A stretch of 28,268 nt of DNA from a virus: the UHGV virus genome UHGV-0093355, one strand, 5' to 3'. Below are positions 7,910 through 26,785 of the stretch, piece after piece. The stretch's first letter is position 1; each line of letters begins with the position of its first letter. The notes beneath the pieces are model-generated. The model made no database searches. It worked only from the letters and a program-made list of their open reading frames with translations, and had not been told where the DNA came from. A program made the position numbers and the translations under genes.

Positions 7910-9232
7910 ATGAGTGCGTTAAGGGATGAAGTATCTATGAAGGTTGCGTTCTCTAATGGCATGATAAACAAATTATGCAAAAGTTTTTTTTATAGTCATG
8001 GTAAGGAGCAGCCTTGTATTCAAGTCGGTAAAGCATTAGAAGATTTTGTTTTTTGGCTTGCATATAATGATGAGGAGATTGCAAAATGTGCTAGTAGGTT
8101 ATTAAAAGCATATGGCCCCCAATTAGGTATAAGTGACCTTCACAATGCGAAAAGATTATTGTTAGGTTTTTGTTCTGAAGCCTTCAATCGCATTGATGCT
8201 GATTTTCTGTCGCTTAATCCTGATAAGATTTGTGTTGATGATATTATAACGCAAGTTCATAGAAAAAATCTTAGTGAGATGTTTAAGTATTATATACTTT
8301 CACGAATAAAATTATGTCCATATATTTATAATCTTGGGTGTGCTGGCTTTGATGGGAAGCTTGAGCTTAGAGAAAATTTATTTTTATATGGCCCGGGGTT
8401 AGGGGTGGAATTACTTTCTGATATTAAAGACAAAACTGACATCAAGGTTCCTGTTGATTTTTATGATGATGAATATATGCGGCATAAACCAATTGGGAAG
8501 TATTTTCGACAGTCAAAATCCTGCTTGGTGGTGGCATATGCTTCATCAGAGGATAAAGCGGTGAAAATGTTTGATAGTTTGTTTGGAGCTTTATGTCTTG
8601 CAGTTGATAATCCTTTTGCGATTAATCGAGTTGCTGTTAATAATCTAGTTGAGTCTTTTGGTGTCGGGAAATATCATGAAAGTGAGTTTCGGGTGAATAT
8701 TCCGTCTGTATATAATTTAAATATAACGGATTCAGCCTTGGCGATACTTACAAAAATACTTTCATCACCTGATAAAAGGATGTTGTCTGCTCTTTCCTTT
8801 ATAGCGCACGGGTGGAGGGATGACAAACGTGAAAGGTTTTTGAATCAATTTATAGCATTGGATGCTATGTATGGAACCAATAATGGTAATAAAAATTCAA
8901 TTATTGGCGGTGTTTGCAGAGATGCGGCGAAAATTATTGATATTGATTCAAAAATAGGAATAATCTATGAGCTTAGGTGTAAGTTTGTTCATGGAGATAT
9001 TTCATCGTTATCTGATAATGATGGCTATCGAAAGTTTATTGATAGCTATGGCGTAGACCCTATTGTTTCTCTTTTTGAAATTCTTAAAGAATGCGTCCTT
9101 AATTATAATGGTACTTACAAAACGCCAAAAGATGTTGGAAAGGCAGATAGGTCTATTTGCGTTCCTGCTGAGTTGCTTCCAGCGGTTGAGAGGATGATAG
9201 CGGAATACAGTGGAGTTAAAAAAACAAACTAA
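7910..9232 (+). CDS. Cargo protein of unknown function, 440 aa (tin/old position)
   Basis: Single long ORF with AAGGA RBS before ATG 7910; strongly AT-rich compared with flanking A and Q; no Walker A motif, so not Old-like. Confidence 0.7.
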   Translation: MSALRDEVSMKVAFSNGMINKLCKSFFYSHGKEQPCIQVGKALEDFVFWLAYNDEEIAKCASRLLKAYGPQLGISDLHNAKRLLLGFCSEAFNRIDADFLSLNPDKICVDDIITQVHRKNLSEMFKYYILSRIKLCPYIYNLGCAGFDGKLELRENLFLYGPGLGVELLSDIKDKTDIKVPVDFYDDEYMRHKPIGKYFRQSKSCLVVAYASSEDKAVKMFDSLFGALCLAVDNPFAINRVAVNNLVESFGVGKYHESEFRVNIPSVYNLNITDSALAILTKILSSPDKRMLSALSFIAHGWRDDKRERFLNQFIALDAMYGTNNGNKNSIIGGVCRDAAKIIDIDSKIGIIYELRCKFVHGDISSLSDNDGYRKFIDSYGVDPIVSLFEILKECVLNYNGTYKTPKDVGKADRSICVPAELLPAVERMIAEYSGVKKTN

Positions 9233-18814: not shown

Positions 18815-19600
18815 TTATGAGTGGTTTTTATTTGATGCTTTGTATTCTAAAACCTTCTTATTGGCGTAAAAGAATTTTGTATATGACAGGAATATAACCA
18901 GACCTGAAGTGAAATAGACGAGGGATAGTATTAATAATGCTTTTTTGTGACTGTTATTATCTTTAATCTCCTGGCTTAACCATTCGGAGTCCTCCTCGTT
19001 TAGCTGTAAGAGCTTATTGCAGGCGATCTCAGGAAGTGTGTCTTTTATAAATACGTTTTGCAGTCTCTTGCAATCGGCAAGGCTATAAGTTTTATTGAAT
19101 TCAACTGTTTTATTGTTGAAGGATAAAAGAACTTTGTCACTATAAACATAGTACATCATATTTTTATATGGTATGCCTATGGCATCTCTTACTATAGCGG
19201 ATTGTTTGTTGTGTATATAACATGCGAAGAGAATATAAATAATACTGGACAGAATTACAATTATTGTTTTAATTATGTGTGGTGGTTTTGTTATGTCACC
19301 CCAGAAGCGAGTAAGAAAAAAATACGATGTTTTTAGTTTTCCATCAATCAGCCCCTGCTGTATCATTCTCACATCTTCGATGCCTGATACATTGATTCCG
19401 TTAAGTATTTTAAATAGTTGAATGTCGCGCCACTCGCGGTCCAGTCTTTTTAATTTTTTGTCTGAATATCCAAATTTGAAATAATGTGCAATAAGCCTCA
19501 TAAGGTTACTTTTACCAAAGCTAAAAAATGCTAATACTGCAAAGACCAAAAGATACAAAACGATTAGCTCCCACACATTAGTCACATTATAGCTGACCAT
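18815..19600 (-). CDS. Multi-pass membrane protein of unknown function, 261 aa (P2 orf30 position)
   Basis: AAGGAG RBS 6 nt before the ATG; AT-rich; three strongly hydrophobic segments (N-terminal, central, C-terminal); opposite strand to the late operons. Confidence 0.7.
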   Translation of the reverse strand: MVSYNVTNVWELIVLYLLVFAVLAFFSFGKSNLMRLIAHYFKFGYSDKKLKRLDREWRDIQLFKILNGINVSGIEDVRMIQQGLIDGKLKTSYFFLTRFWGDITKPPHIIKTIIVILSSIIYILFACYIHNKQSAIVRDAIGIPYKNMMYYVYSDKVLLSFNNKTVEFNKTYSLADCKRLQNVFIKDTLPEIACNKLLQLNEEDSEWLSQEIKDNNSHKKALLILSLVYFTSGLVIFLSYTKFFYANKKVLEYKASNKNHS

Positions 19601-19683
19601 TACGCTCTCCTTGAATGTTGTCTGGTGGTTCTACAAATGAATCCAGATAGCATAACTTTTATATATTGTGCAATCTCACATGC

Positions 19684-20319
19684 ATGGACACTCTCGCAAA
19701 TATTCAGGAACTCGCGCGCGCACTGCGCAACATGATTCGTACCGGCATTATCGTTGAAACCGACCTTAACGCCGGTCGCTGCCGTGTGCAGACCGGTGGC
19801 ATGTGCACCGACTGGTTGCAGTGGCTGACTCATCGTGCTGGGCGTTCGCGCGCATGGTGGGCACCTTCCGTGGGGGAACAGGTGCTGATTCTGGCTGTGG
19901 GCGGTGAACTCGACACGGCGTTCGTTCTGCCGGGGATTTATTCCGGCGATAACCCCGCGCCGTCTGCGTCGGCGGATGCCCTGCATATCCGTTTCCCTGA
20001 CGGGGCGGTGATTGAGTATGAACCCGAAACCAGTGCACTCACGGTAAGCGGAATTAAAACGGCCAGCGTGACGGCTTCTGATTCTGTTACTGCCACGGTG
20101 CCGGTGGTCATGGTGAAAGCATCAACCCGCGTCACCCTGGACACACCGGAGGTGGTCTGCACCAACAGGCTGATTACCGGCACGCTGGAAGTGCAGAAGG
20201 GCGGGACGATGCGCGGCAACATTGAACACACCGGCGGTGAACTCTCATCAAACGGTAAGGTACTGCATACCCATAAACACCCCGGCGACAGCGGCGGCAC
20301 AACCGGGAGTCCTTTATGA
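19684..20319 (+). CDS. V: Baseplate spike/assembly protein V, 211 aa
   Basis: Start at MDTLANIQELARAL (19684); 211 aa; recognised as P2 V-like. Confidence 0.9.
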   Translation: MDTLANIQELARALRNMIRTGIIVETDLNAGRCRVQTGGMCTDWLQWLTHRAGRSRAWWAPSVGEQVLILAVGGELDTAFVLPGIYSGDNPAPSASADALHIRFPDGAVIEYEPETSALTVSGIKTASVTASDSVTATVPVVMVKASTRVTLDTPEVVCTNRLITGTLEVQKGGTMRGNIEHTGGELSSNGKVLHTHKHPGDSGGTTGSPL

Positions 20320-20667: not shown

Positions 20668-21576
20668 ATGCCGATTATCGACCTGAACCAGCTACCCGCA
20701 CCGGATGTGGTCGAGGAGCTGGACTTTGAAACCATTCTTGCCGAACGCAAGGCGACACTGATTTCCCTTTACCCGGAAGACCAGCAGGAGGCGGTCGCCC
20801 GTACCCTGACACTGGAATCTGAGCCTCTCGTCAAACTGCTGGAGGAAAATGCTTATCGTGAGCTTATCTGGCGTCAGCGTGTGAATGAGGCCGCACGGGC
20901 GGTAATGCTGGCCTGTGCTGCCGGTAATGACCTTGATGTGATTGGTGCCAATTACAACACCACGCGCCTGATTATCACCCCGGCAGATGATTCGACCATC
21001 CCGCCGACACCGGCAGTGATGGAGTCTGACACCGATTATCGTCTGCGTATTCAGCAGGCGTTTGAGGGCTTAAGCGTCGCCGGGTCGGTGGGAGCCTATC
21101 AGTATCATGGACGCAGTGCTGACGGGCGTGTCGCGGATATCTCTGTCACCAGTCCGTCTCCGGCCTGTGTCACCATCTCTGTGCTGTCACGTGAAAATAA
21201 CGGTGTCGCTTCCGAAGACCTGCTGGCGGTGGTGCGTAACGCCCTTAATGGTGAGGACGTCAGGCCGGTGGCCGACCGCGTGACCGTGCAGTCTGCCGCC
21301 ATCGTTGAATACCAGATAAACGCCACGCTTTACCTTTACCCTGGTCCCGAAAGCGAACCCATCCGCGCGGCCGCCGTGAAAAAACTGGAAGCATACATCA
21401 CGGCACAGCACCGGCTGGGGCGCGACATCCGTCTGTCTGCCATTTATGCCGCTTTGCATGTGGAAGGCGTGCAGCGTGTCGAACTGGCTGCACCACTGGC
21501 CGACATCGTGCTCAACAATACGCAGGCGTCTTTCTGTACCGAATACCGCGTTGTGACCGGAGGCTCGGATGAGTGA
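20668..21576 (+). CDS. J: Baseplate protein J, 302 aa
   Basis: 302 aa; recognised as P2 J-like. Confidence 0.9.
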   Translation: MPIIDLNQLPAPDVVEELDFETILAERKATLISLYPEDQQEAVARTLTLESEPLVKLLEENAYRELIWRQRVNEAARAVMLACAAGNDLDVIGANYNTTRLIITPADDSTIPPTPAVMESDTDYRLRIQQAFEGLSVAGSVGAYQYHGRSADGRVADISVTSPSPACVTISVLSRENNGVASEDLLAVVRNALNGEDVRPVADRVTVQSAAIVEYQINATLYLYPGPESEPIRAAAVKKLEAYITAQHRLGRDIRLSAIYAALHVEGVQRVELAAPLADIVLNNTQASFCTEYRVVTGGSDE

Positions 21577-22099
21577 TTCGCGACTGCTGCCGACCGGCTC
21601 ATCACCGCTTGAAGTTGCTGCCGCAAAAGCCTGTGCGGAAATTGAAAAAACGCCGGTCAGGATTCGTGAGCTGTGGAACCCGGACACCTGCCCGGCAAAT
21701 TTGCTGCCGTGGCTGGCGTGGGCGTTTTCGGTCGACAGGTGGGATGAAAAGTGGCCGGAAGCGACAAAACGCGCCGTTATCCGCGATGCCTATTTCATCC
21801 ACTGTCATAAAGGCACTATCGGCGCAATCCGGCGTGTGGTGGAGCCGCTCGGCTATCTCATCAACGTGACGGAGTGGTGGGAAAACAGTGACCCGCCCGG
21901 CACCTTCCGGCTTGATATTGGCGTACTGGAAAGTGGCATCACAGAGGCAATGTATCAGGAAATGGAACGGCTGATTGCTGATGCCAAACCTGCAAGCCGT
22001 CACCTTATTGGTCTGAACATTACCCGGGACATTCCCGGCTATCTGTTCGCCGGTGGTGTGGCTTACGACGGCGATGTAATTACGGTTTACCCCGGATAA
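21569..22099 (+). CDS. I: Tail protein I, 176 aa
   Basis: 176 aa; overlaps J stop. Confidence 0.9.
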   Translation: MSDSRLLPTGSSPLEVAAAKACAEIEKTPVRIRELWNPDTCPANLLPWLAWAFSVDRWDEKWPEATKRAVIRDAYFIHCHKGTIGAIRRVVEPLGYLINVTEWWENSDPPGTFRLDIGVLESGITEAMYQEMERLIADAKPASRHLIGLNITRDIPGYLFAGGVAYDGDVITVYPG

Positions 22100-22109
22100 G
22101 TGAGGAATA

Positions 22110-24272
22110 ATGAGCACAAAATTCAAAACTGTTATCACCACTGCCGGTGCAGCAAAGCTGGCAGCGGCAACCGCGCCGGGAGGGCGGAAGGTCAACATTA
22201 CCACGATGGCCGTCGGGGATGGCGGTGGTAAATTGCCTGTCCCGGATGCCGGACAGACCGGGCTTATCCATGAAGTCTGGCGACATGCGCTGAACAAAAT
22301 CAGCCAGGACAAACGAAACAGTAATTATATTATCGCAGAGCTGGTTATTCCGCCGGAGGTGGGCGGTTTCTGGATGCGTGAGCTTGGCCTGTACGATGAT
22401 GCGGGAACGTTAATTGCTGTGGCGAACATGGCCGAAAGTTATAAACCCGCTCTTGCCGAAGGCTCAGGGCGTTCGCAGACCTGCCGCATGGTCATCATCG
22501 TCAGCAGTGTGGCCTCAGTGGAGCTGACCATTGACACCACAACGGTGATGGCGACGCAGGATTACGTTGATGACAAAATTGCAGAGCATGAACAGTCACG
22601 ACGTCACCCGGACGCCTCGCTGACCGCAAAAGGTTTTACTCAGTTAAGCAGTGCGACCAACAGCACGTCTGAAACACTGGCCGCAACGCCGAAAGCGGTA
22701 AAGGCCGCCTATGACCTTGCTAACGGGAAATATACTGCGCAGGATGCCACCACGGCGCGAAAAGGCCTTGTTCAGCTCAGTAGTGTGACCAACAGCACGT
22801 CTGAAACGCTCGCCGCAACGCCGAAAGCGGTAAAGGCCGCCTATGACCTTGCTAACGGGAAATACACTGCACAGGACGCCACCACCGCGCGAAAAGGTCT
22901 TGTCCAGCTCAGTAGCGCCACCAACAGCGATTCTGAAACGCTGGCCGCAACACCAAAAGCGGTGAAGTCTGCCAATGACAATGCTGAAAAACGTCTTCAG
23001 AAAGATCAGAACGGTGCGGATATTCCGGGAAAGGATACCTTCACGAAAAATATCGGTGCCTGTCGTGCTTATAGCGGCGCTTTGAGCACTGAAGCCGGAA
23101 ACTGGACAACCGCTCAGTTTATTGAATGGCTGGATTCCCGTGGTGCATTTAATCATCCGTACTGGATGTGCAAAGGCTCCTGGTCATATGCAAATAACAA
23201 AATCATTACGGATACCGGATGTGGGGATATCCACCTGGCTGGTTGTGTCGTCGAGGTCATGGGAACAAAATCTGCAATCACTATTCGAGTGACCACGCCG
23301 ACAACATCAAGCGGTGGCGGTACAACCAGCGCGCAATTCACTTACATTAATCATGGGGACGGCTACTCCCCCGGCTGGCGTCGTGACTGGAATCGTCAGG
23401 GCGACGCAATGACCGGAACGATTAATCAGGATGGCGGAAGCCAGAATGCCTATATGTCTACGGCCTTATGTTCAGGCACCAGAGGCGGCAAAAAATATCT
23501 CAGAAAGTTTCGTGGTGGAGAAGGAGACACTATCTGGCATGAAACAGTGCAGGGCGGGGTAATTCGCTGGGCGACAGGAAACTATGACGCTCAGGAAGAA
23601 TTATCACTCAGCTCCGCTTATGGTCTCCGTTCTAGAGGTGAAATTACATCACTCAGTGCTAATGGTCTGCGCATTGCTTATGGCAATTATGGATTCTTTA
23701 TCAGGAATGATGGCGGCAGCACATATTTAATGCTGACGGCCTCTGGCGATAAATTTGGGACATGGAACGGTTTAAGACCGCTGACTATCAATAACGCTAA
23801 TGGCGGAGTGTCAATGGGGCATGGCCTGAGTGTTACTGGTGATATTGCCTCAAGTACCAAAGTACGCGCCGGTAGCGGGAAAAAGTTCACGGTCAGCAGC
23901 AGTAATACATCCACGAAGGAAGCCGCATTCAATTTGTGGGGAAACTCAAGTCGTCCGGTGGTGGCTGAATTAGGTGATGATGCAGGCTGGCATTTTTACA
24001 GTCAGAGAAATACAGATAACAGCATCACTTTTGCTGTTAACGGTCAGGTATCACCATCTAACTATAGTAATTTTGATTCCCGTTATGTACGCGATATCCG
24101 GCTTGGGACTCGAGTTGTCCAGACCATGCAGAAAGGGGTGATGTATGAGAAAGCAGGGCACGTAATTACCGGGCTTGGTATTGTCGGTGAAGTCGATGGT
24201 GATGACCCCGCAGTATTCAGACCAATACAAAAATACATCAATGGCACATGGTATAACGTCGCACAGGTGTAA
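22110..24272 (+). CDS. H: Tail fibre protein, 720 aa (P2 gpH-like termini, divergent middle)
   Basis: N-terminal ~190 aa and C-terminal ~130 aa recognised as P2 H-like; contains internal tandem repeats. Confidence 0.9.
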   Translation: MSTKFKTVITTAGAAKLAAATAPGGRKVNITTMAVGDGGGKLPVPDAGQTGLIHEVWRHALNKISQDKRNSNYIIAELVIPPEVGGFWMRELGLYDDAGTLIAVANMAESYKPALAEGSGRSQTCRMVIIVSSVASVELTIDTTTVMATQDYVDDKIAEHEQSRRHPDASLTAKGFTQLSSATNSTSETLAATPKAVKAAYDLANGKYTAQDATTARKGLVQLSSVTNSTSETLAATPKAVKAAYDLANGKYTAQDATTARKGLVQLSSATNSDSETLAATPKAVKSANDNAEKRLQKDQNGADIPGKDTFTKNIGACRAYSGALSTEAGNWTTAQFIEWLDSRGAFNHPYWMCKGSWSYANNKIITDTGCGDIHLAGCVVEVMGTKSAITIRVTTPTTSSGGGTTSAQFTYINHGDGYSPGWRRDWNRQGDAMTGTINQDGGSQNAYMSTALCSGTRGGKKYLRKFRGGEGDTIWHETVQGGVIRWATGNYDAQEELSLSSAYGLRSRGEITSLSANGLRIAYGNYGFFIRNDGGSTYLMLTASGDKFGTWNGLRPLTINNANGGVSMGHGLSVTGDIASSTKVRAGSGKKFTVSSSNTSTKEAAFNLWGNSSRPVVAELGDDAGWHFYSQRNTDNSITFAVNGQVSPSNYSNFDSRYVRDIRLGTRVVQTMQKGVMYEKAGHVITGLGIVGEVDGDDPAVFRPIQKYINGTWYNVAQV
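22641..22970 (+). repeat. In-frame 132-bp tandem repeat, ~2.5 copies, inside tail fibre gene
   Basis: Units at 22641-22772 and 22773-22904 are near-identical (44-aa unit QLSS[AV]TNSTSETLAATPKAVKAAYDLANGKYTAQDATTARKGLV); a third partial, diverged unit follows from 22905. Confidence 0.85.
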
Positions 24273-24275
24273 TTT

Positions 24276-24803
24276 ATGCAACATTTAAAAAATATTACTG
24301 CGGGTAATCCAAAAACTGTTGCCCAATATCAACTGACAAAAAATTTTGATGTTATCTGGTTATGGTCCGAAGAGGGAAAAAACTGGTATGAGGAAGTAAG
24401 TAATTTTCAGGAGGACACGATAAAGATTGTTTACGACGAGAATAATATAATTGTCGGCATCACCCGAGATGCTTCAACGCTTAACCCTGAAGGTTTTAGC
24501 GTTGTTGAGGTTCCTGATATTACTGCCAACCGACGTGCTGATGACTCAGGTAAATGGATGTTTAAGGATGGTGCCGTGATTAAGCGGATTTATACGGCAG
24601 ACGAACAGCAGCAACTGGCAGAATCACAAAAGGCAACTTTGCTTTCCGAAGCCGAATCCGTGATTTTGCCGCTGGAGCGCGCTGTCAGGCTGAATATGGC
24701 AACAGATGAGGAGCGTAGCCGACTGGATGCATGGGAGCGTTACAGCGTTCTGGTCAGTCGTGTGGATCCTGCAAATCCTGAATGGCCGGAAATGCCGCAA
24801 TAA
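24276..24803 (+). CDS. G: Tail fibre assembly chaperone, 175 aa (P2 gpG-like)
   Basis: 175 aa immediately after H. Confidence 0.9.
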
Positions 24804-25345
24804 GTTGTATGAGCTCTAGTGTGAGCTTACATATCTATGGCACAGAGTAAAGACTAATCTGACAGTCCGCTCTGTGCCAAAAGCGGTTCTTGCCTGAAGG
24901 CTCTGCCAGCTCGTTATTGCCCCATTCCGTGTTTTGGCTCGTTAGCTCAATCAAAAAATCCCACTCCTGCTGCCATACAAATTCTTATCTATTTGCCTAT
25001 GTTTGCCTTATCAGAAATCGACTAATAATGTATGGGTATACCGTCATGCTTAAATTTAGGTGTTTTTGTATGATTTTAACACAGAATTAGTGCGCGCCAA
25101 TTCCATTCGAAATGTATAAAAATCTATAAAATCAATTAACTATAGGTTCTTGATTTTAGTTAATAGGTTTGAAAAACGCGCCTGCGCGTTTTTCAAGATA
25201 GTGTATTTGGCAAAAAGATGATAACATATTTGCATACAAATAGTTAACCGTGCGCGTTTTTACTGGTCTAACGAAGTAAATGTGCATCCGCACGAATAAA
25301 ATATTAGGCCTATACAACACACAGCCATCACTATCGGGAATAAAT

Positions 25346-26785
25346 ATGACAGACAGGAAAACAGTAGCCGTAGTTGATGCTGGTCACCTCGTTTCACCAA
25401 TCGGTGAACTCAATGAGCAATTAGAGTGGTATCTCGTAAACGTTGGGCTCCCTGTTAATGATGTTGTTGCACCAATTGCTGAAAGAAAAAAGGTCATTGC
25501 ACAACTCGCTGATGCTCTGGAAATACTTCCTCACGCTGATCGTGGACAAGCCCACTACTTATCGCGCTTTACGATTGCAATCGCTGCTGGGCTTTTTGAT
25601 GGCGCGCTAAATTATCTTTGGGACGAAACCGTCAGGGCTCTTCGTCGCCAAGTCATTAGCTTTGATATTCAATATTTTTATTCGGTTGCCGAGAAAATCA
25701 GTTCCCGCTACAAGTCGCTTTCAAAGTCAGAAGAAATCGATCAAGTTAGCGAACACGATCTATTGGAGGGGTGCCGCCGAATAGGGTTGGTAACTGATGT
25801 TAACTATCAACGACTAGAGCATGTTAACTACATGCGCAATCATGCAAGTGCTGCACATCCAAACGACAACGAAATCGATGGCTACGAAATGCTTGGGTGG
25901 CTAACGGCATGTCTTAAACATGCCATCACCGCAGAGCCAGACCATTCTCTAATTTCCATCAAGCAACTTCTCCAGAACATTCGTACGGTAGCCATTCCAA
26001 GTGGTGACTTTTCCGTAATCTGTTCTGATTTGGCAAAACAACCGCAAGAGCGGATTGATGACTTCCTCTGGACGTTATTTGGTATCTACACGGATGATAA
26101 ATCTGCTCAGCATGCAAGAGATAATATTGAAGGCATTAGTCCAGCCGTCTGGGTTGCTGCAACCGAAGATAGAAAATACGAAATTGGTGCCCGGTTTGGA
26201 ATGCTCCGAAAAAATGGACAGGTCGCGAAGAAGGATGCCAGCCAGAAATTCCTGGAAGTGGTGGGTGGTCTCGCATACAAAGATGAAGACAGCCTTGCCG
26301 GCGAATTGATAGAGAAGCTTGAGAACCTCTATCGTGCGCACTTCGGATCAAACAATTTTTATAACGAATATCCTCATGCAAAAGCACTGAATGATAGTTT
26401 GCCCGCTACAGGAAAAATTCCCCGTGCGGCTCGGGCAATGTGGGTCAAGGTAATTTCAATTTGCTATGTCGGCAACGGGCATGGATACAGGCAAGGAGTG
26501 GACGAGCAAGCCCTCCCATATTATCAAGACTACGTAAGTAATTTCACCGAAGGGGAAACGGCCGAATTTATCAAACTTTTCTTTGAACCCGAGTTTGCCA
26601 GCCCGCTATCACGAAGCACCCCAGATAAACGAGCCCGTGATTTGGCAACGCTCCTGAAAGCCAAACACACAAACGTTCATTTACAGCGAGCGCTCGATTT
26701 AATCATTGCAGCCCCCGCGAAGACTTTATATGGTCTTTACAACACTACAGGCTTCAAGAATGTTGTTCCAAATCTTCCAGCTTAA
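25346..26785 (+). CDS. Cargo protein of unknown function, 479 aa (Z/fun position, gene 1)
   Basis: Long ORF in an AT-rich island; start set at ATG 25346 (MTDRK), though ATG 25280 is possible and neither has a strong RBS. Contains an R-N-x5-H motif (about nt 25835-25858). Confidence 0.65.
   Translation: MTDRKTVAVVDAGHLVSPIGELNEQLEWYLVNVGLPVNDVVAPIAERKKVIAQLADALEILPHADRGQAHYLSRFTIAIAAGLFDGALNYLWDETVRALRRQVISFDIQYFYSVAEKISSRYKSLSKSEEIDQVSEHDLLEGCRRIGLVTDVNYQRLEHVNYMRNHASAAHPNDNEIDGYEMLGWLTACLKHAITAEPDHSLISIKQLLQNIRTVAIPSGDFSVICSDLAKQPQERIDDFLWTLFGIYTDDKSAQHARDNIEGISPAVWVAATEDRKYEIGARFGMLRKNGQVAKKDASQKFLEVVGGLAYKDEDSLAGELIEKLENLYRAHFGSNNFYNEYPHAKALNDSLPATGKIPRAARAMWVKVISICYVGNGHGYRQGVDEQALPYYQDYVSNFTEGETAEFIKLFFEPEFASPLSRSTPDKRARDLATLLKAKHTNVHLQRALDLIIAAPAKTLYGLYNTTGFKNVVPNLPA

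Follow-up and report, generated by a model that had tools for sequence, protein, structure and literature searches.

Modular architecture of a P2-type phage tail fibre with a tandem 132-bp repeat and a probably heterologous middle

Known fibres and the H locus

Tail fibres with P2-like ends and a mosaic middle are already known, as this architecture has been published for phage L-413C. PMC7460101, summarising Garcia et al. (2008), presents the gpH of this Yersinia phage as a “four-region hybrid” fibre. It gives the protein a P2-like N-terminus of 207 aa and a P2-like C-terminus of 137 aa, and puts the mosaic middle down to recombination. In the P2-like phages P88 and pro147, receptor recognition is set by C-terminal hypervariable regions, and homology to T4 gp34 has been modelled for both. 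Fibres of the P2 type are trimers that adsorb to the host, in P2 at the LPS core, and P2 has been retargeted by exchanging the distal part of H together with its cognate chaperone. The repeat family PF03406 has also been recorded in lambdoid side tail fibres and in the collagen-like fibres of EHEC prophages, and in 2021 it was still listed with those families of repeats whose models had no close match among solved structures. Phage Mu carries one repeat copy in S (gp49; PDB 5yvq) and S' (PDB 8ju3), plus a joint motif closing the constant part Sc. In our literature searches, no publication dealt with differences in the copy number of this repeat among H genes of P2-like phages.

The locus described here lies in a whole ENA metagenome contig of 28,268 nt, the complete stretch of DNA that we analysed (hereafter, the window). 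The gene for the fibre and its neighbours were as follows:

21569..22099, + strand: gene I, baseplate protein, directly upstream of H (Pfam Tail_P2_I, E=8e-56)
22110..24272, + strand: gene H, P2-type tail fibre protein of 720 aa, stop codon included (ORF list, Pfam)
22110..22562, + strand: N-terminal baseplate-attachment (“tail-collar fibre”) domain of H, aa 1-151 (Pfam Phage_tail_fib PF12571, E=1.3e-58)
24276..24803, + strand: gene G, tail fibre assembly chaperone of 175 aa (Pfam Caudo_TAP, E=1.3e-34)

The J-I-H-G order is that of P2, and the locus was collinear with P2, vB_YpM_46 and P37. H had Pfam matches to PF12571, PF03406 (three stretches) and PF21446. It matched 62 PHROG families, and an NCBIfam search with H gave no match. 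The PF12571 N-terminus, the V-W-J-I-H-G operon with a gpG-type chaperone and the P2-like tip are those of P2-type H proteins (Peduovirus). H is thus the usual tail fibre gene of a phage, or prophage, of the P2-like kind (Peduovirus). The rest of the window was 96.5% identical to P2, with 82% of the query covered, and its nearest phages had Y. pestis EV76 and E. coli as isolation hosts.

Over H and G, the nucleotide identity was 97.2% to the published Yersinia phage vB_YpM_46 and 93.8% to Yersinia phage P37. The H of vB_YpM_46 (NC_055845 / MT374857; Peduovirus YPM46) has 764 aa, one 44-aa unit more than the window H, and its residues 335-764 are 100% identical to residues 291-720 of the latter. 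P37 (NC_070907) has, like the window, an H of 720 aa with two full units and one truncated unit, but its N-terminal domain has diverged (78% nt identity). In P2 (NC_001895), H residues 1-177 are 97% identical to the window's, the C-terminal 130 aa 80% and G 90%. P2 H carries the same repeat, as one full and one truncated unit; with 669 aa it has one full unit fewer, and its residues ~245-540 are unrelated to residues ~291-590 of the window H. L-413C (NC_004745) shares the architecture, with 86% identity over the N-terminal 207 aa, 88% over the last 81 aa (H 833-913, against the tip) and 94% in G. It differs in the length of H (913 aa), in having a single repeat motif, and in its middle.

The repeat array

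The array consists of two full units and a truncated one:

22641..22772, + strand: repeat unit 1, “A-type” first-position unit, aa 178-221 (repeat searches; nearest to first units elsewhere)
22773..22904, + strand: repeat unit 2, “B-type”, aa 222-265 (43/44 aa identical to unit 1)
22905..22982, + strand: truncated terminal unit, “D-type”, aa 266-291 (third PF03406 stretch)

Tandem Repeats Finder detected no tandem array in the window but this one, which it placed at 22650-22979 with a score of 520, as 2.5 copies of a 132-nt period with 88% matches and without indels. A second repeat search placed it in another register, at 22628-22759, 22760-22891 and 22892-23023 (100, 89 and 61%, respectively). 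A sequence-only reading of this DNA had claimed a perfect in-frame 132-bp repeat in its title and, in its text, near-identical units with a diverged partial third. The units are indeed in frame, both full ones starting at codon position 1 of H, and near-identical, but not perfect, as 120 of their 132 nt agree (90.9%). The partial third unit is present as well, with 63 of its ~78 nt identical to unit 2. At the protein level, units 1 and 2 have one A/V difference, and 10 of their 11 differing codons are synonymous. Their longest identical tract, of 53 nt, is an available recombination substrate. The likeness of unit 3 to the others ends after ~78-84 nt, beyond which there are ~0-4 matches per block of 12. 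This truncated unit is the last conserved block ahead of the variable distal part, and is homologous to Mu S aa ~110-150. An antisense ORF over the array (22644-23156, 170 aa) had no Pfam match. We treated it as spurious, because the variation in the array falls on third codon positions of the H frame.

The units are typical members of the Pfam “phage tail fibre repeat”, PF03406 (Phage_fiber_2). Three stretches of the 42-position profile were found from aa 170 on, with 190.1 bits against a cutoff of 22 and a whole-protein E of 3.8e-57. A PDB sequence search with the repeat region brought up one homologous copy, that in the Mu S/S' entries, and no other; its remaining matches (PBP5 and others) had E>0.4 and were discarded as noise. 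An AF2 monomer model of aa 140-330, from a 20-sequence alignment, had a mean pLDDT of 41 and a pTM of 0.19, too low to be informative, as expected for an obligate trimer.

The number of repeats, whose comparison among relatives the sequence-only reading had proposed as a check, was variable. Protein alignment gave two motifs in P2, three in the window, three in P37 and four in vB_YpM_46. The 109 complete H ORFs from the fetched loci had 0-5 motifs, in constant 44-aa phase, and 120 protein cluster representatives had 2-8. The count distribution was not flat, three and four motifs being the commonest. In the cluster with the window's own distal type, three motifs were found in four loci and four motifs in 14, and the number varied inside other distal-type clusters too (3/4/5, 4/5 and 3/4). 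The gene is present in complete E. coli genomes as both 2163-bp and 2295-bp versions. By its sequence, the window H is essentially the vB_YpM_46 H less one repeat unit.

The 2.5 copies could also be an assembly artefact, produced from a phage with 3.5 copies, like vB_YpM_46, by merging two ~90%-identical units into a hybrid. The exact H protein of this metagenome contig is a singleton in the collection, and outside the array, from aa 291 on, it does not differ from that of vB_YpM_46. Unit 1 is identical to L017 unit 1, and unit 2 is like L017 unit 2, with four differences; two of these, at the last two variable sites of the 3' end, match L017 unit 3, a hybrid pattern of two sites only. Many database H proteins are “partial” and terminate within the array, a sign that assemblies do break there. 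In the VB-YPM-4 record, H is split by a frameshift at the array. Against a collapse, the A-B-D architecture and the 2163-bp gene are shared by P37, an isolated phage, and by complete chromosomes of E. coli (e.g., YZ22PE244 and O121 GTVSS-020), and the H reading frame is intact. Moreover, units 1 and 2 differ at 12 sites, so that reads of 150 nt can usually distinguish them. We consider an artefact quite unlikely. For a true deletion from 3.5 to 2.5 copies, a crossover near unit positions 114-125 would fit, judged by two sites. More generally, short-read assemblies often break, and may collapse, in the array, and fibre lengths from draft or metagenome assemblies therefore need checking.

Between units 1 and 2 the dS was 0.38 and the dN 0.02 (dN/dS about 0.05). 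First units from other phages shared 121-127 of 132 nt with unit 1, more than unit 2 of the same gene did (120/132 nt). The units are old paralogues, matching position by position across phages, and their duplication is not recent. Among 47 distinct arrays, 18-23 polymorphic sites were shared between unit positions, versus 0-2 fixed differences. Because the shared polymorphisms far exceed the fixed differences, they point to inter-unit recombination as their source, and they could partly mirror old unequal crossovers, rather than ongoing conversion. Nucleotide diversity was 0.06-0.085 in the array and 0.005-0.028 in the flanks. Between the window and vB_YpM_46, the array DNA differed by ~8-9%, and the flanks by only 0.5-1.5%.

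Copy-number change by slipped or unequal recombination had been suggested from the sequence alone. Copy-number variation and recombination between units are borne out by the comparisons above; frequent slippage within a strain is not, given the divergence of the units and their position-by-position correspondence. A slippage-driven contingency-type locus is likewise not indicated. Copy number does differ among close relatives, but the units have only 87-91% identity, with a longest identical run of 53 nt, and fall short of the near-identity expected of such a locus.

The middle and the tip

Downstream of the array, we distinguished the following parts of H:

22983..23036, + strand: joint motif KRLQKDQNGADIPGKD, resembling the stretch that closes the Mu S constant part, just ahead of the G-segment boundary, and also the beginning of Mu Sv'
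22980..23438, + strand: Mu/P1 S'-like module, aa 291-443 (238 bits to 8ju3 residues 178-332)
23439..23597, + strand: linker segment, aa 444-496 (among the named fibres tested, matched only by vB_YpM_46 and P37)
23598..23879, + strand: T4 gp34 / Mu S-like trimerisation (shaft) module, aa 497-590 (Pfam Gp34_trimer, aa 497-560, E=5.4e-26)
23880..24272, + strand: C-terminal tip resembling that of P2 H, aa 591-720 (residues 80% identical to P2 H 540-669)

In blastn against P2 H and G, two stretches aligned, 22110-22835 at 95.6% identity and 23880-24803 at 81.7%; all matches between them were repeat-shifted. Protein alignment with P2 H gave nothing credible over aa ~290-590. P2 H-like ends around a non-P2 centre had been proposed at about 22980-23900, which is accurate. 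The nucleotide homology stops at 22835 and restarts at 23880.

The module of aa 291-443 is homologous to Mu Sv'. It had 69% identity to the corresponding part of Mu gp52, 72.5% nucleotide identity to the Mu G segment in G(-) reading and 72.5% aa identity to S of the P1-like phage RCS47, and no match in P2 H. The joint motif was delimited from phmmer alignments to 8ju3 and 5yvq, the Mu G-segment boundary annotation and the Mu S' sequence. A weaker match to the SSU5 fibre (47% over aa ~312-576) spans the linker. The module of aa 497-590 also matched PDB 4uxe, 5nxf and 5yvq, and its aa 510-581 were 75% identical to the Mu S shaft (residues 270-341). The C-terminal trimerisation region of T4 gp34 (PF21446; 4uxe, 5nxf) was matched by aa 497-580 with an E of about 1e-25; T4 gp34 shares only this ~80-residue module with the window H, the remainder being unrelated. 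The tip had 49% identity to the Mu S C-terminus. Some 45 different distal types were found attached to this N-terminus and array. The homologies to the variable part of Mu S', to Mu S and to T4 gp34 support a middle composed of heterologous segments of Mu-like and T4-like origin, as would result from the domain shuffling that the sequence-only reading had suggested.

Three of the likenesses to Mu could be taken to mean that the locus is, or recently was, an invertible host-range switch of the Mu G or P1 C-segment type, served by a Din-family invertase, with the S'-like middle as its remnant: the homology of the middle module to the G(-) variable part of Mu S', the match of the joint motif to the Mu Sc / G-segment boundary, and the 87% identity between the window G and Mu U. 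However, there is a single H/G pair, with no second, inverted fibre end or chaperone pair downstream of G, and no long inverted repeats flank H and G. The gix-like AAACCNNGGTTT core was absent from the locus, the lone match in the window, at position 1068, being at chance level. The genes are arranged as in P2, where no invertase is present at this place. Mu itself differs from the window in its N-terminal docking domain, its single repeat copy and the Gin-mediated inversion of its distal ends. Without flanking inverted repeats and a gix-like core, we rejected an invertible tail-fibre segment (Mu G / P1 C / e14 P type), which we regard as extremely improbable.

Fibre architecture and unit number

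Very probably, H encodes a modular trimeric fibre, with a long-lived paralogous repeat shaft reshaped by recombination and a heterologous middle joined at the last unit. The N-terminal ~170 residues would dock the fibre onto the baseplate. The proximal shaft would be built from the 44-residue PF03406 repeats, two full units and one truncated, each of which presumably lengthens it. The Mu/P1 S'-like module, the T4 gp34 / Mu S-like trimerisation module and the P2 H-like tip would then follow in this order, and the co-inherited chaperone G would fold the tip and probably also cap it. The array is made of long-lived paralogous units whose protein sequence is kept by strong purifying selection. Whole 132-bp units are probably gained and lost, and synonymous variants exchanged among them, through unequal homologous recombination and gene conversion between units, the window allele being a vB_YpM_46-type fibre minus one unit. 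The truncated last unit and the “...NGADIP.K...” motif probably form the conserved joint where heterologous distal segments were repeatedly attached to one and the same N-terminus, giving the non-P2 middle.

The divergent middle, which the sequence-only reading suggested may change host range, looks like shaft and trimerisation modules. The receptor-binding, chaperone-dependent end is probably the P2/Mu-like C-terminal tip together with chaperone G, and not the middle, and host specificity would lie mainly in this tip and G. Tfa proteins reportedly stay on the fibre tip and bind the host surface (North and Davidson 2021).

Repeat number itself may be functionally neutral, the array being a tolerant spacer whose copy differences drift via occasional unequal crossovers, with adsorption and host range unaffected. 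Fibres that have the N-terminus and the distal type in common may still carry anything from one to five motifs, and isolated, plaque-forming phages have two (P2), three (P37) and four (vB_YpM_46). On the other side, the low dN/dS shows strong purifying selection on the unit sequence, which makes the units structural but bears on structure and not directly on number. The peak of the counts at three and four motifs is likewise not direct evidence that number matters. We hold neutrality to be a real possibility, though not the one we would bet on.

The array could instead be more than a spacer, namely an actively recombining, selectively maintained “length and exchange cassette”. Signs of this could be the synonymous diversity of the array, which exceeds that of the flanks 3-8 times, and the polymorphisms pervasively shared among unit positions. 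Continual gene conversion could then act together with selection for synonymous divergence, keeping the units dissimilar enough to escape rapid deletion. We find this unlikely. If true, the number of units (one to eight) would tune the reach of the fibre to the thickness of the O-antigen or capsule, and would be a second host-range determinant, independent of the tip.

For the annotation of P2-type fibres, the modular architecture set out here gives residue-level boundaries for the dock, the repeat shaft, the S'-like module, the gp34-like trimeriser, and the tip with G. In the engineering of P2/P4-based delivery particles and of retargeted tailocins, the truncated last repeat and its NGADIP joint offer themselves as places for fusions. 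Should unit number affect adsorption, it would hypothetically offer a simple length dial for tail-fibre engineering.

Gene H, its tandem array and its genomic setting

The window holds most of a Peduovirus (P2-like) genome, with 96.5% identity to P2 across 82% of its first 25 kb. The gene order around H is J-I-H-G, as in P2.

Features of the window and domains of H
7910–9232, + strand: 440-aa ORF between replication gene A and portal gene Q
18815–19600 and 19600–19986, − strand: two-gene cassette between tail genes (R/S side) and baseplate gene V
21569–22099: Tail_P2_I gene (Pfam), upstream of H
22110–24272, + strand: gene H, 720 aa
H aa 1–151: tail-collar fibre N-terminal domain (Pfam, E = 1.3e-58)
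H from aa 170: phage tail fibre repeat PF03406, three copies (Pfam, E = 3.8e-57)
H aa 497–560: T4 gp34 trimerisation domain (Pfam, E = 5.4e-26)
24276–24803: Caudo_TAP tail-fibre assembly gene (Pfam), downstream of H
24890–25090: 66-aa ORF accompanying the 501-aa ORF
25280–26785, + strand: 501-aa ORF between G and tail sheath gene FI

H matched 62 PHROG families, which fits a mosaic protein. Tandem Repeats Finder detected a single array in the whole window (22650–22979, period 132, 2.5 copies, 88% matches, no indels, score 520), and a second repeat search recovered the same array in a different register. The sequence-only reading had described a perfect in-frame 132-bp repeat. The repeat was confirmed and keeps the reading frame, but “perfect” is too strong: the full units, 22641–22772 and 22773–22904, agree at 120 of 132 nt (91%), each starts at codon position 1, and the encoded 44-aa modules differ by one residue (98% identity). 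Ten of the 11 differing codons were synonymous (dN 0.02, dS 0.38, NG86), and the longest identical run was 53 nt. The third unit could be recognised for no more than its initial ~78 nt (63/78 versus unit 2), diverging thereafter. An antisense 170-aa ORF across the array (22644–23156, − strand) was judged spurious, having no Pfam match, and the variation of the array tracks codon positions in the H frame.

Elsewhere in the window, the 440-aa ORF occupies the position at which P2 has the non-essential tin/old genes. It had no match in Pfam, PADLOC or NCBIfam, and its PHROG match, phrog_23812, has no assigned function. Identical or near-identical proteins are named “HEPN domain-containing protein” in NCBI sources, and its 90% cluster has 398 members from E. 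coli, Salmonella and E. albertii; its product is a candidate anti-phage cargo. The 501-aa ORF lies at the place of Z/fun in P2. Its only match among Pfam, PADLOC, NCBIfam and PHROGs was phrog_27609, a family with no assigned function, and its exact sequence was absent from a 15-billion-protein collection. E. coli O121 GTVSS-020 encodes a Shedu immune nuclease at this site (locus L126, 3985–4163), which marks it as a variable cargo and defence hotspot. From the opposite-strand cassette, the 261-aa product matched phrog_2407, again a family with no assigned function, and the 128-aa product had no match in Pfam, PADLOC, NCBIfam or PHROGs.

The mosaic middle and the closest relatives

Comparison with P2 bore out the proposed P2-like ends and non-P2 middle of H. 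BLASTN against P2 H and G gave 95.6% identity at 22110–22835 and 81.7% at 23880–24803, with only repeat-shifted matches in between, and the alignment with the P2 H protein gave nothing credible across aa ~290–590. In PDB sequence searches, aa 291–443 resembled the S’ fibre of phage Mu G(−) (8ju3 residues 178–332, 238 bits), aa 507–590 resembled Mu S (5yvq) and T4 gp34 (4uxe, 5nxf), and the extreme C-terminus resembled the tips of Mu S and S’. Local alignments with Mu confirmed this: the middle was 69% identical to the Mu Sv’ part by BLASTP and 72.5% to the Mu G segment in the G(−) sense by BLASTN, and Mu S 270–341 had 75% aa identity to H. When phage genomes were searched by TBLASTN, the first part of the middle turned up in S genes of P1-like phages (72.5% for RCS47), and the second in numerous long tail fibre genes of T4-like phages. 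The shortened final repeat, with the “...KDQNGADIPGKD” that comes after it, looks like the end of the Mu S constant part, just before the annotated G-segment boundary. These homologies to Mu S’, Mu S and T4 gp34 support the domain shuffling suggested earlier. We saw no sign of an invertible segment: neither inverted repeats flanking H/G nor a gix-like core were found at the locus, which has a single H/G pair.

The closest H and G DNA was that of Yersinia phage vB_YpM_46 (97.2% identity), followed by phage P37 (93.8%). Residues 335–764 of the vB_YpM_46 H are 100% identical to aa 291–720 of the window H, and over the first 177 residues the two proteins share 99.4% identity. The vB_YpM_46 protein (764 aa) has one extra unit and is exactly 44 aa longer. 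Judged by these alignments, the window allele is nearly identical to that of a published phage, and is in effect the vB_YpM_46 fibre less one repeat unit. The P37 H has 720 aa and the same layout of two full units and one truncated unit as the window, and P2 H already has a full unit plus a truncated one. According to Garcia et al. (2008; summarised in PMC7460101), the H of the plague-diagnostic phage L-413C is P2-like in its N-terminal 207 aa and C-terminal 137 aa, and its mosaic middle was ascribed to recombination. The window H has this overall architecture, sharing with L-413C the ends but not the middle.

Copy number and evolution of the array

The comparison of copy number among relatives proposed in the sequence-only reading showed it to be variable. 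The 109 complete H ORFs, from loci fetched out of viral and bacterial genome collections, had 0 to 5 core motifs, full and truncated units together (0 in 1 ORF, 1 in 7, 2 in 21, 3 in 30, 4 in 43 and 5 in 7), always starting at aa ~187 and spaced by 44 aa. The best-scoring 120 90%-cluster representatives had 2 to 8. Clustering of the part distal to the array gave about 45 distal types joined to one common N-terminus. Within the window’s distal type, three motifs were found in 4 loci and four in 14; other types had 3/4/5, 4/5 or 3/4. Complete E. coli genomes carried the 2163-bp gene (e.g., YZ22PE244, O121 GTVSS-020, PMV-1), the 2295-bp version being commoner.

Units corresponded by position between phages: first units were alike at 121–127 of 132 sites, closer than to other units of their own gene. 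Four unit types were recognized, A (first), B, C (“NSDSE”) and D (truncated), arranged as A-B-D in the window and P37, A-C-D in locus L007 and A-B-C-D in four-motif genes, which indicates that different units were lost or gained independently. Among 47 distinct arrays, different unit positions had the same two-base polymorphism at 18–23 of 132 sites, and fixed differences at only 0–2 sites, at the 5’ edge of unit 1. Shared polymorphism with few fixed differences is the classical signature of gene conversion or unequal crossing-over between paralogues, here among units. In line with this, nucleotide diversity of window-type alleles was 0.06–0.085 in the array, versus 0.01–0.03 in the N-terminal domain and 0.005–0.02 just distal, the excess lying almost wholly at third codon positions. 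The closest allele, of vB_YpM_46, differed by 8–9% in the units versus 0.5–1.5% in the flanks. Inter-unit recombination is thus supported, from sequence comparison, as the source of copy-number variation. Of the slipped or unequal recombination proposed earlier, unequal homologous recombination has good support over evolutionary time; frequent replication slippage, as in perfect repeats, is argued against by the divergence of the units. The array-specific excess of synonymous diversity, together with the shared polymorphism, is the one mildly new, quantitative element.

The window corresponds to an entire 28,268-nt contig of an ENA metagenome assembly, and its H protein occurs in that exact form only once among the 15 billion proteins of the collection. 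Its 2 + 1 array could be an artefact of assembly collapse. Most database H homologues (P0001–P0120) are “partial”, many stopping inside or just after the array, and in the record of Yersinia phage VB-YPM-4 a frameshift in the array interrupts H. Unit 2 of the window differs from unit 2 of locus L017 at four sites; at two of these, towards the 3’ end, it has the bases of L017 unit 3. Such a pattern would arise through a genuine 132-bp deletion as well as through an assembly collapse. The A-B-D layout, however, also occurs in complete chromosomes and an isolated phage, showing that the architecture exists in nature, and we consider a collapse improbable.

Short-read assemblies appear to break routinely at the H repeat, making copy numbers from draft genomes unreliable. 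In VB-YPM-4 (L004, ON146439, 1501–3704), H is annotated as two overlapping CDS with the frame break at the array start, which probably reflects faulty sequencing or assembly of the repeats and not a true pseudogene. Four loci with enterobacterial P2-type H (L107, L115, L120 and L121; 76–87% identity) come from assemblies titled Chryseobacterium sp. 18061, Vagococcus sp. WN89Y, a Collinsella MAG and a Bacillota MAG, most likely through contamination with enterobacterial contigs or their mis-binning.

Fibre architecture and host range

No structure of the tandem array was found in the PDB, an AF2 monomer model of the region was uninformative (pLDDT 41), and a 2021 list still placed PF03406 with the repeat families for which models were made with no close match among solved structures. 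By analogy with P2 and Mu fibres, the N-terminus of H would dock on the baseplate, the repeats would be part of the proximal shaft, which each unit should lengthen, and receptor specificity would lie jointly in the C-terminal tip and the gpG/U-type chaperone. The last point is supported by the P2-like phages P88 and pro147, in which C-terminal hypervariable regions control receptor recognition, and by P2/P4 particles retargeted to Salmonella OmpC, S. flexneri or O157 by swapping the distal part of P2 H with its cognate chaperone.

The tip of the window H is 80% identical to P2 and 88% to L-413C, and G is 90% identical to P2. The middle consists of an S’-like module, whose counterpart in Mu lies on the proximal side of the tip, followed by a gp34-like module for trimerisation. 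With such a P2-like tip and G, the suggested change of host range by the divergent middle is unproven, and the tip and G are together the likelier determinant. Effects of the variation on fibre length and host range are plausible. The repeat and mosaic organization is typical of tail fibre genes in P2-like phages and has been described before.
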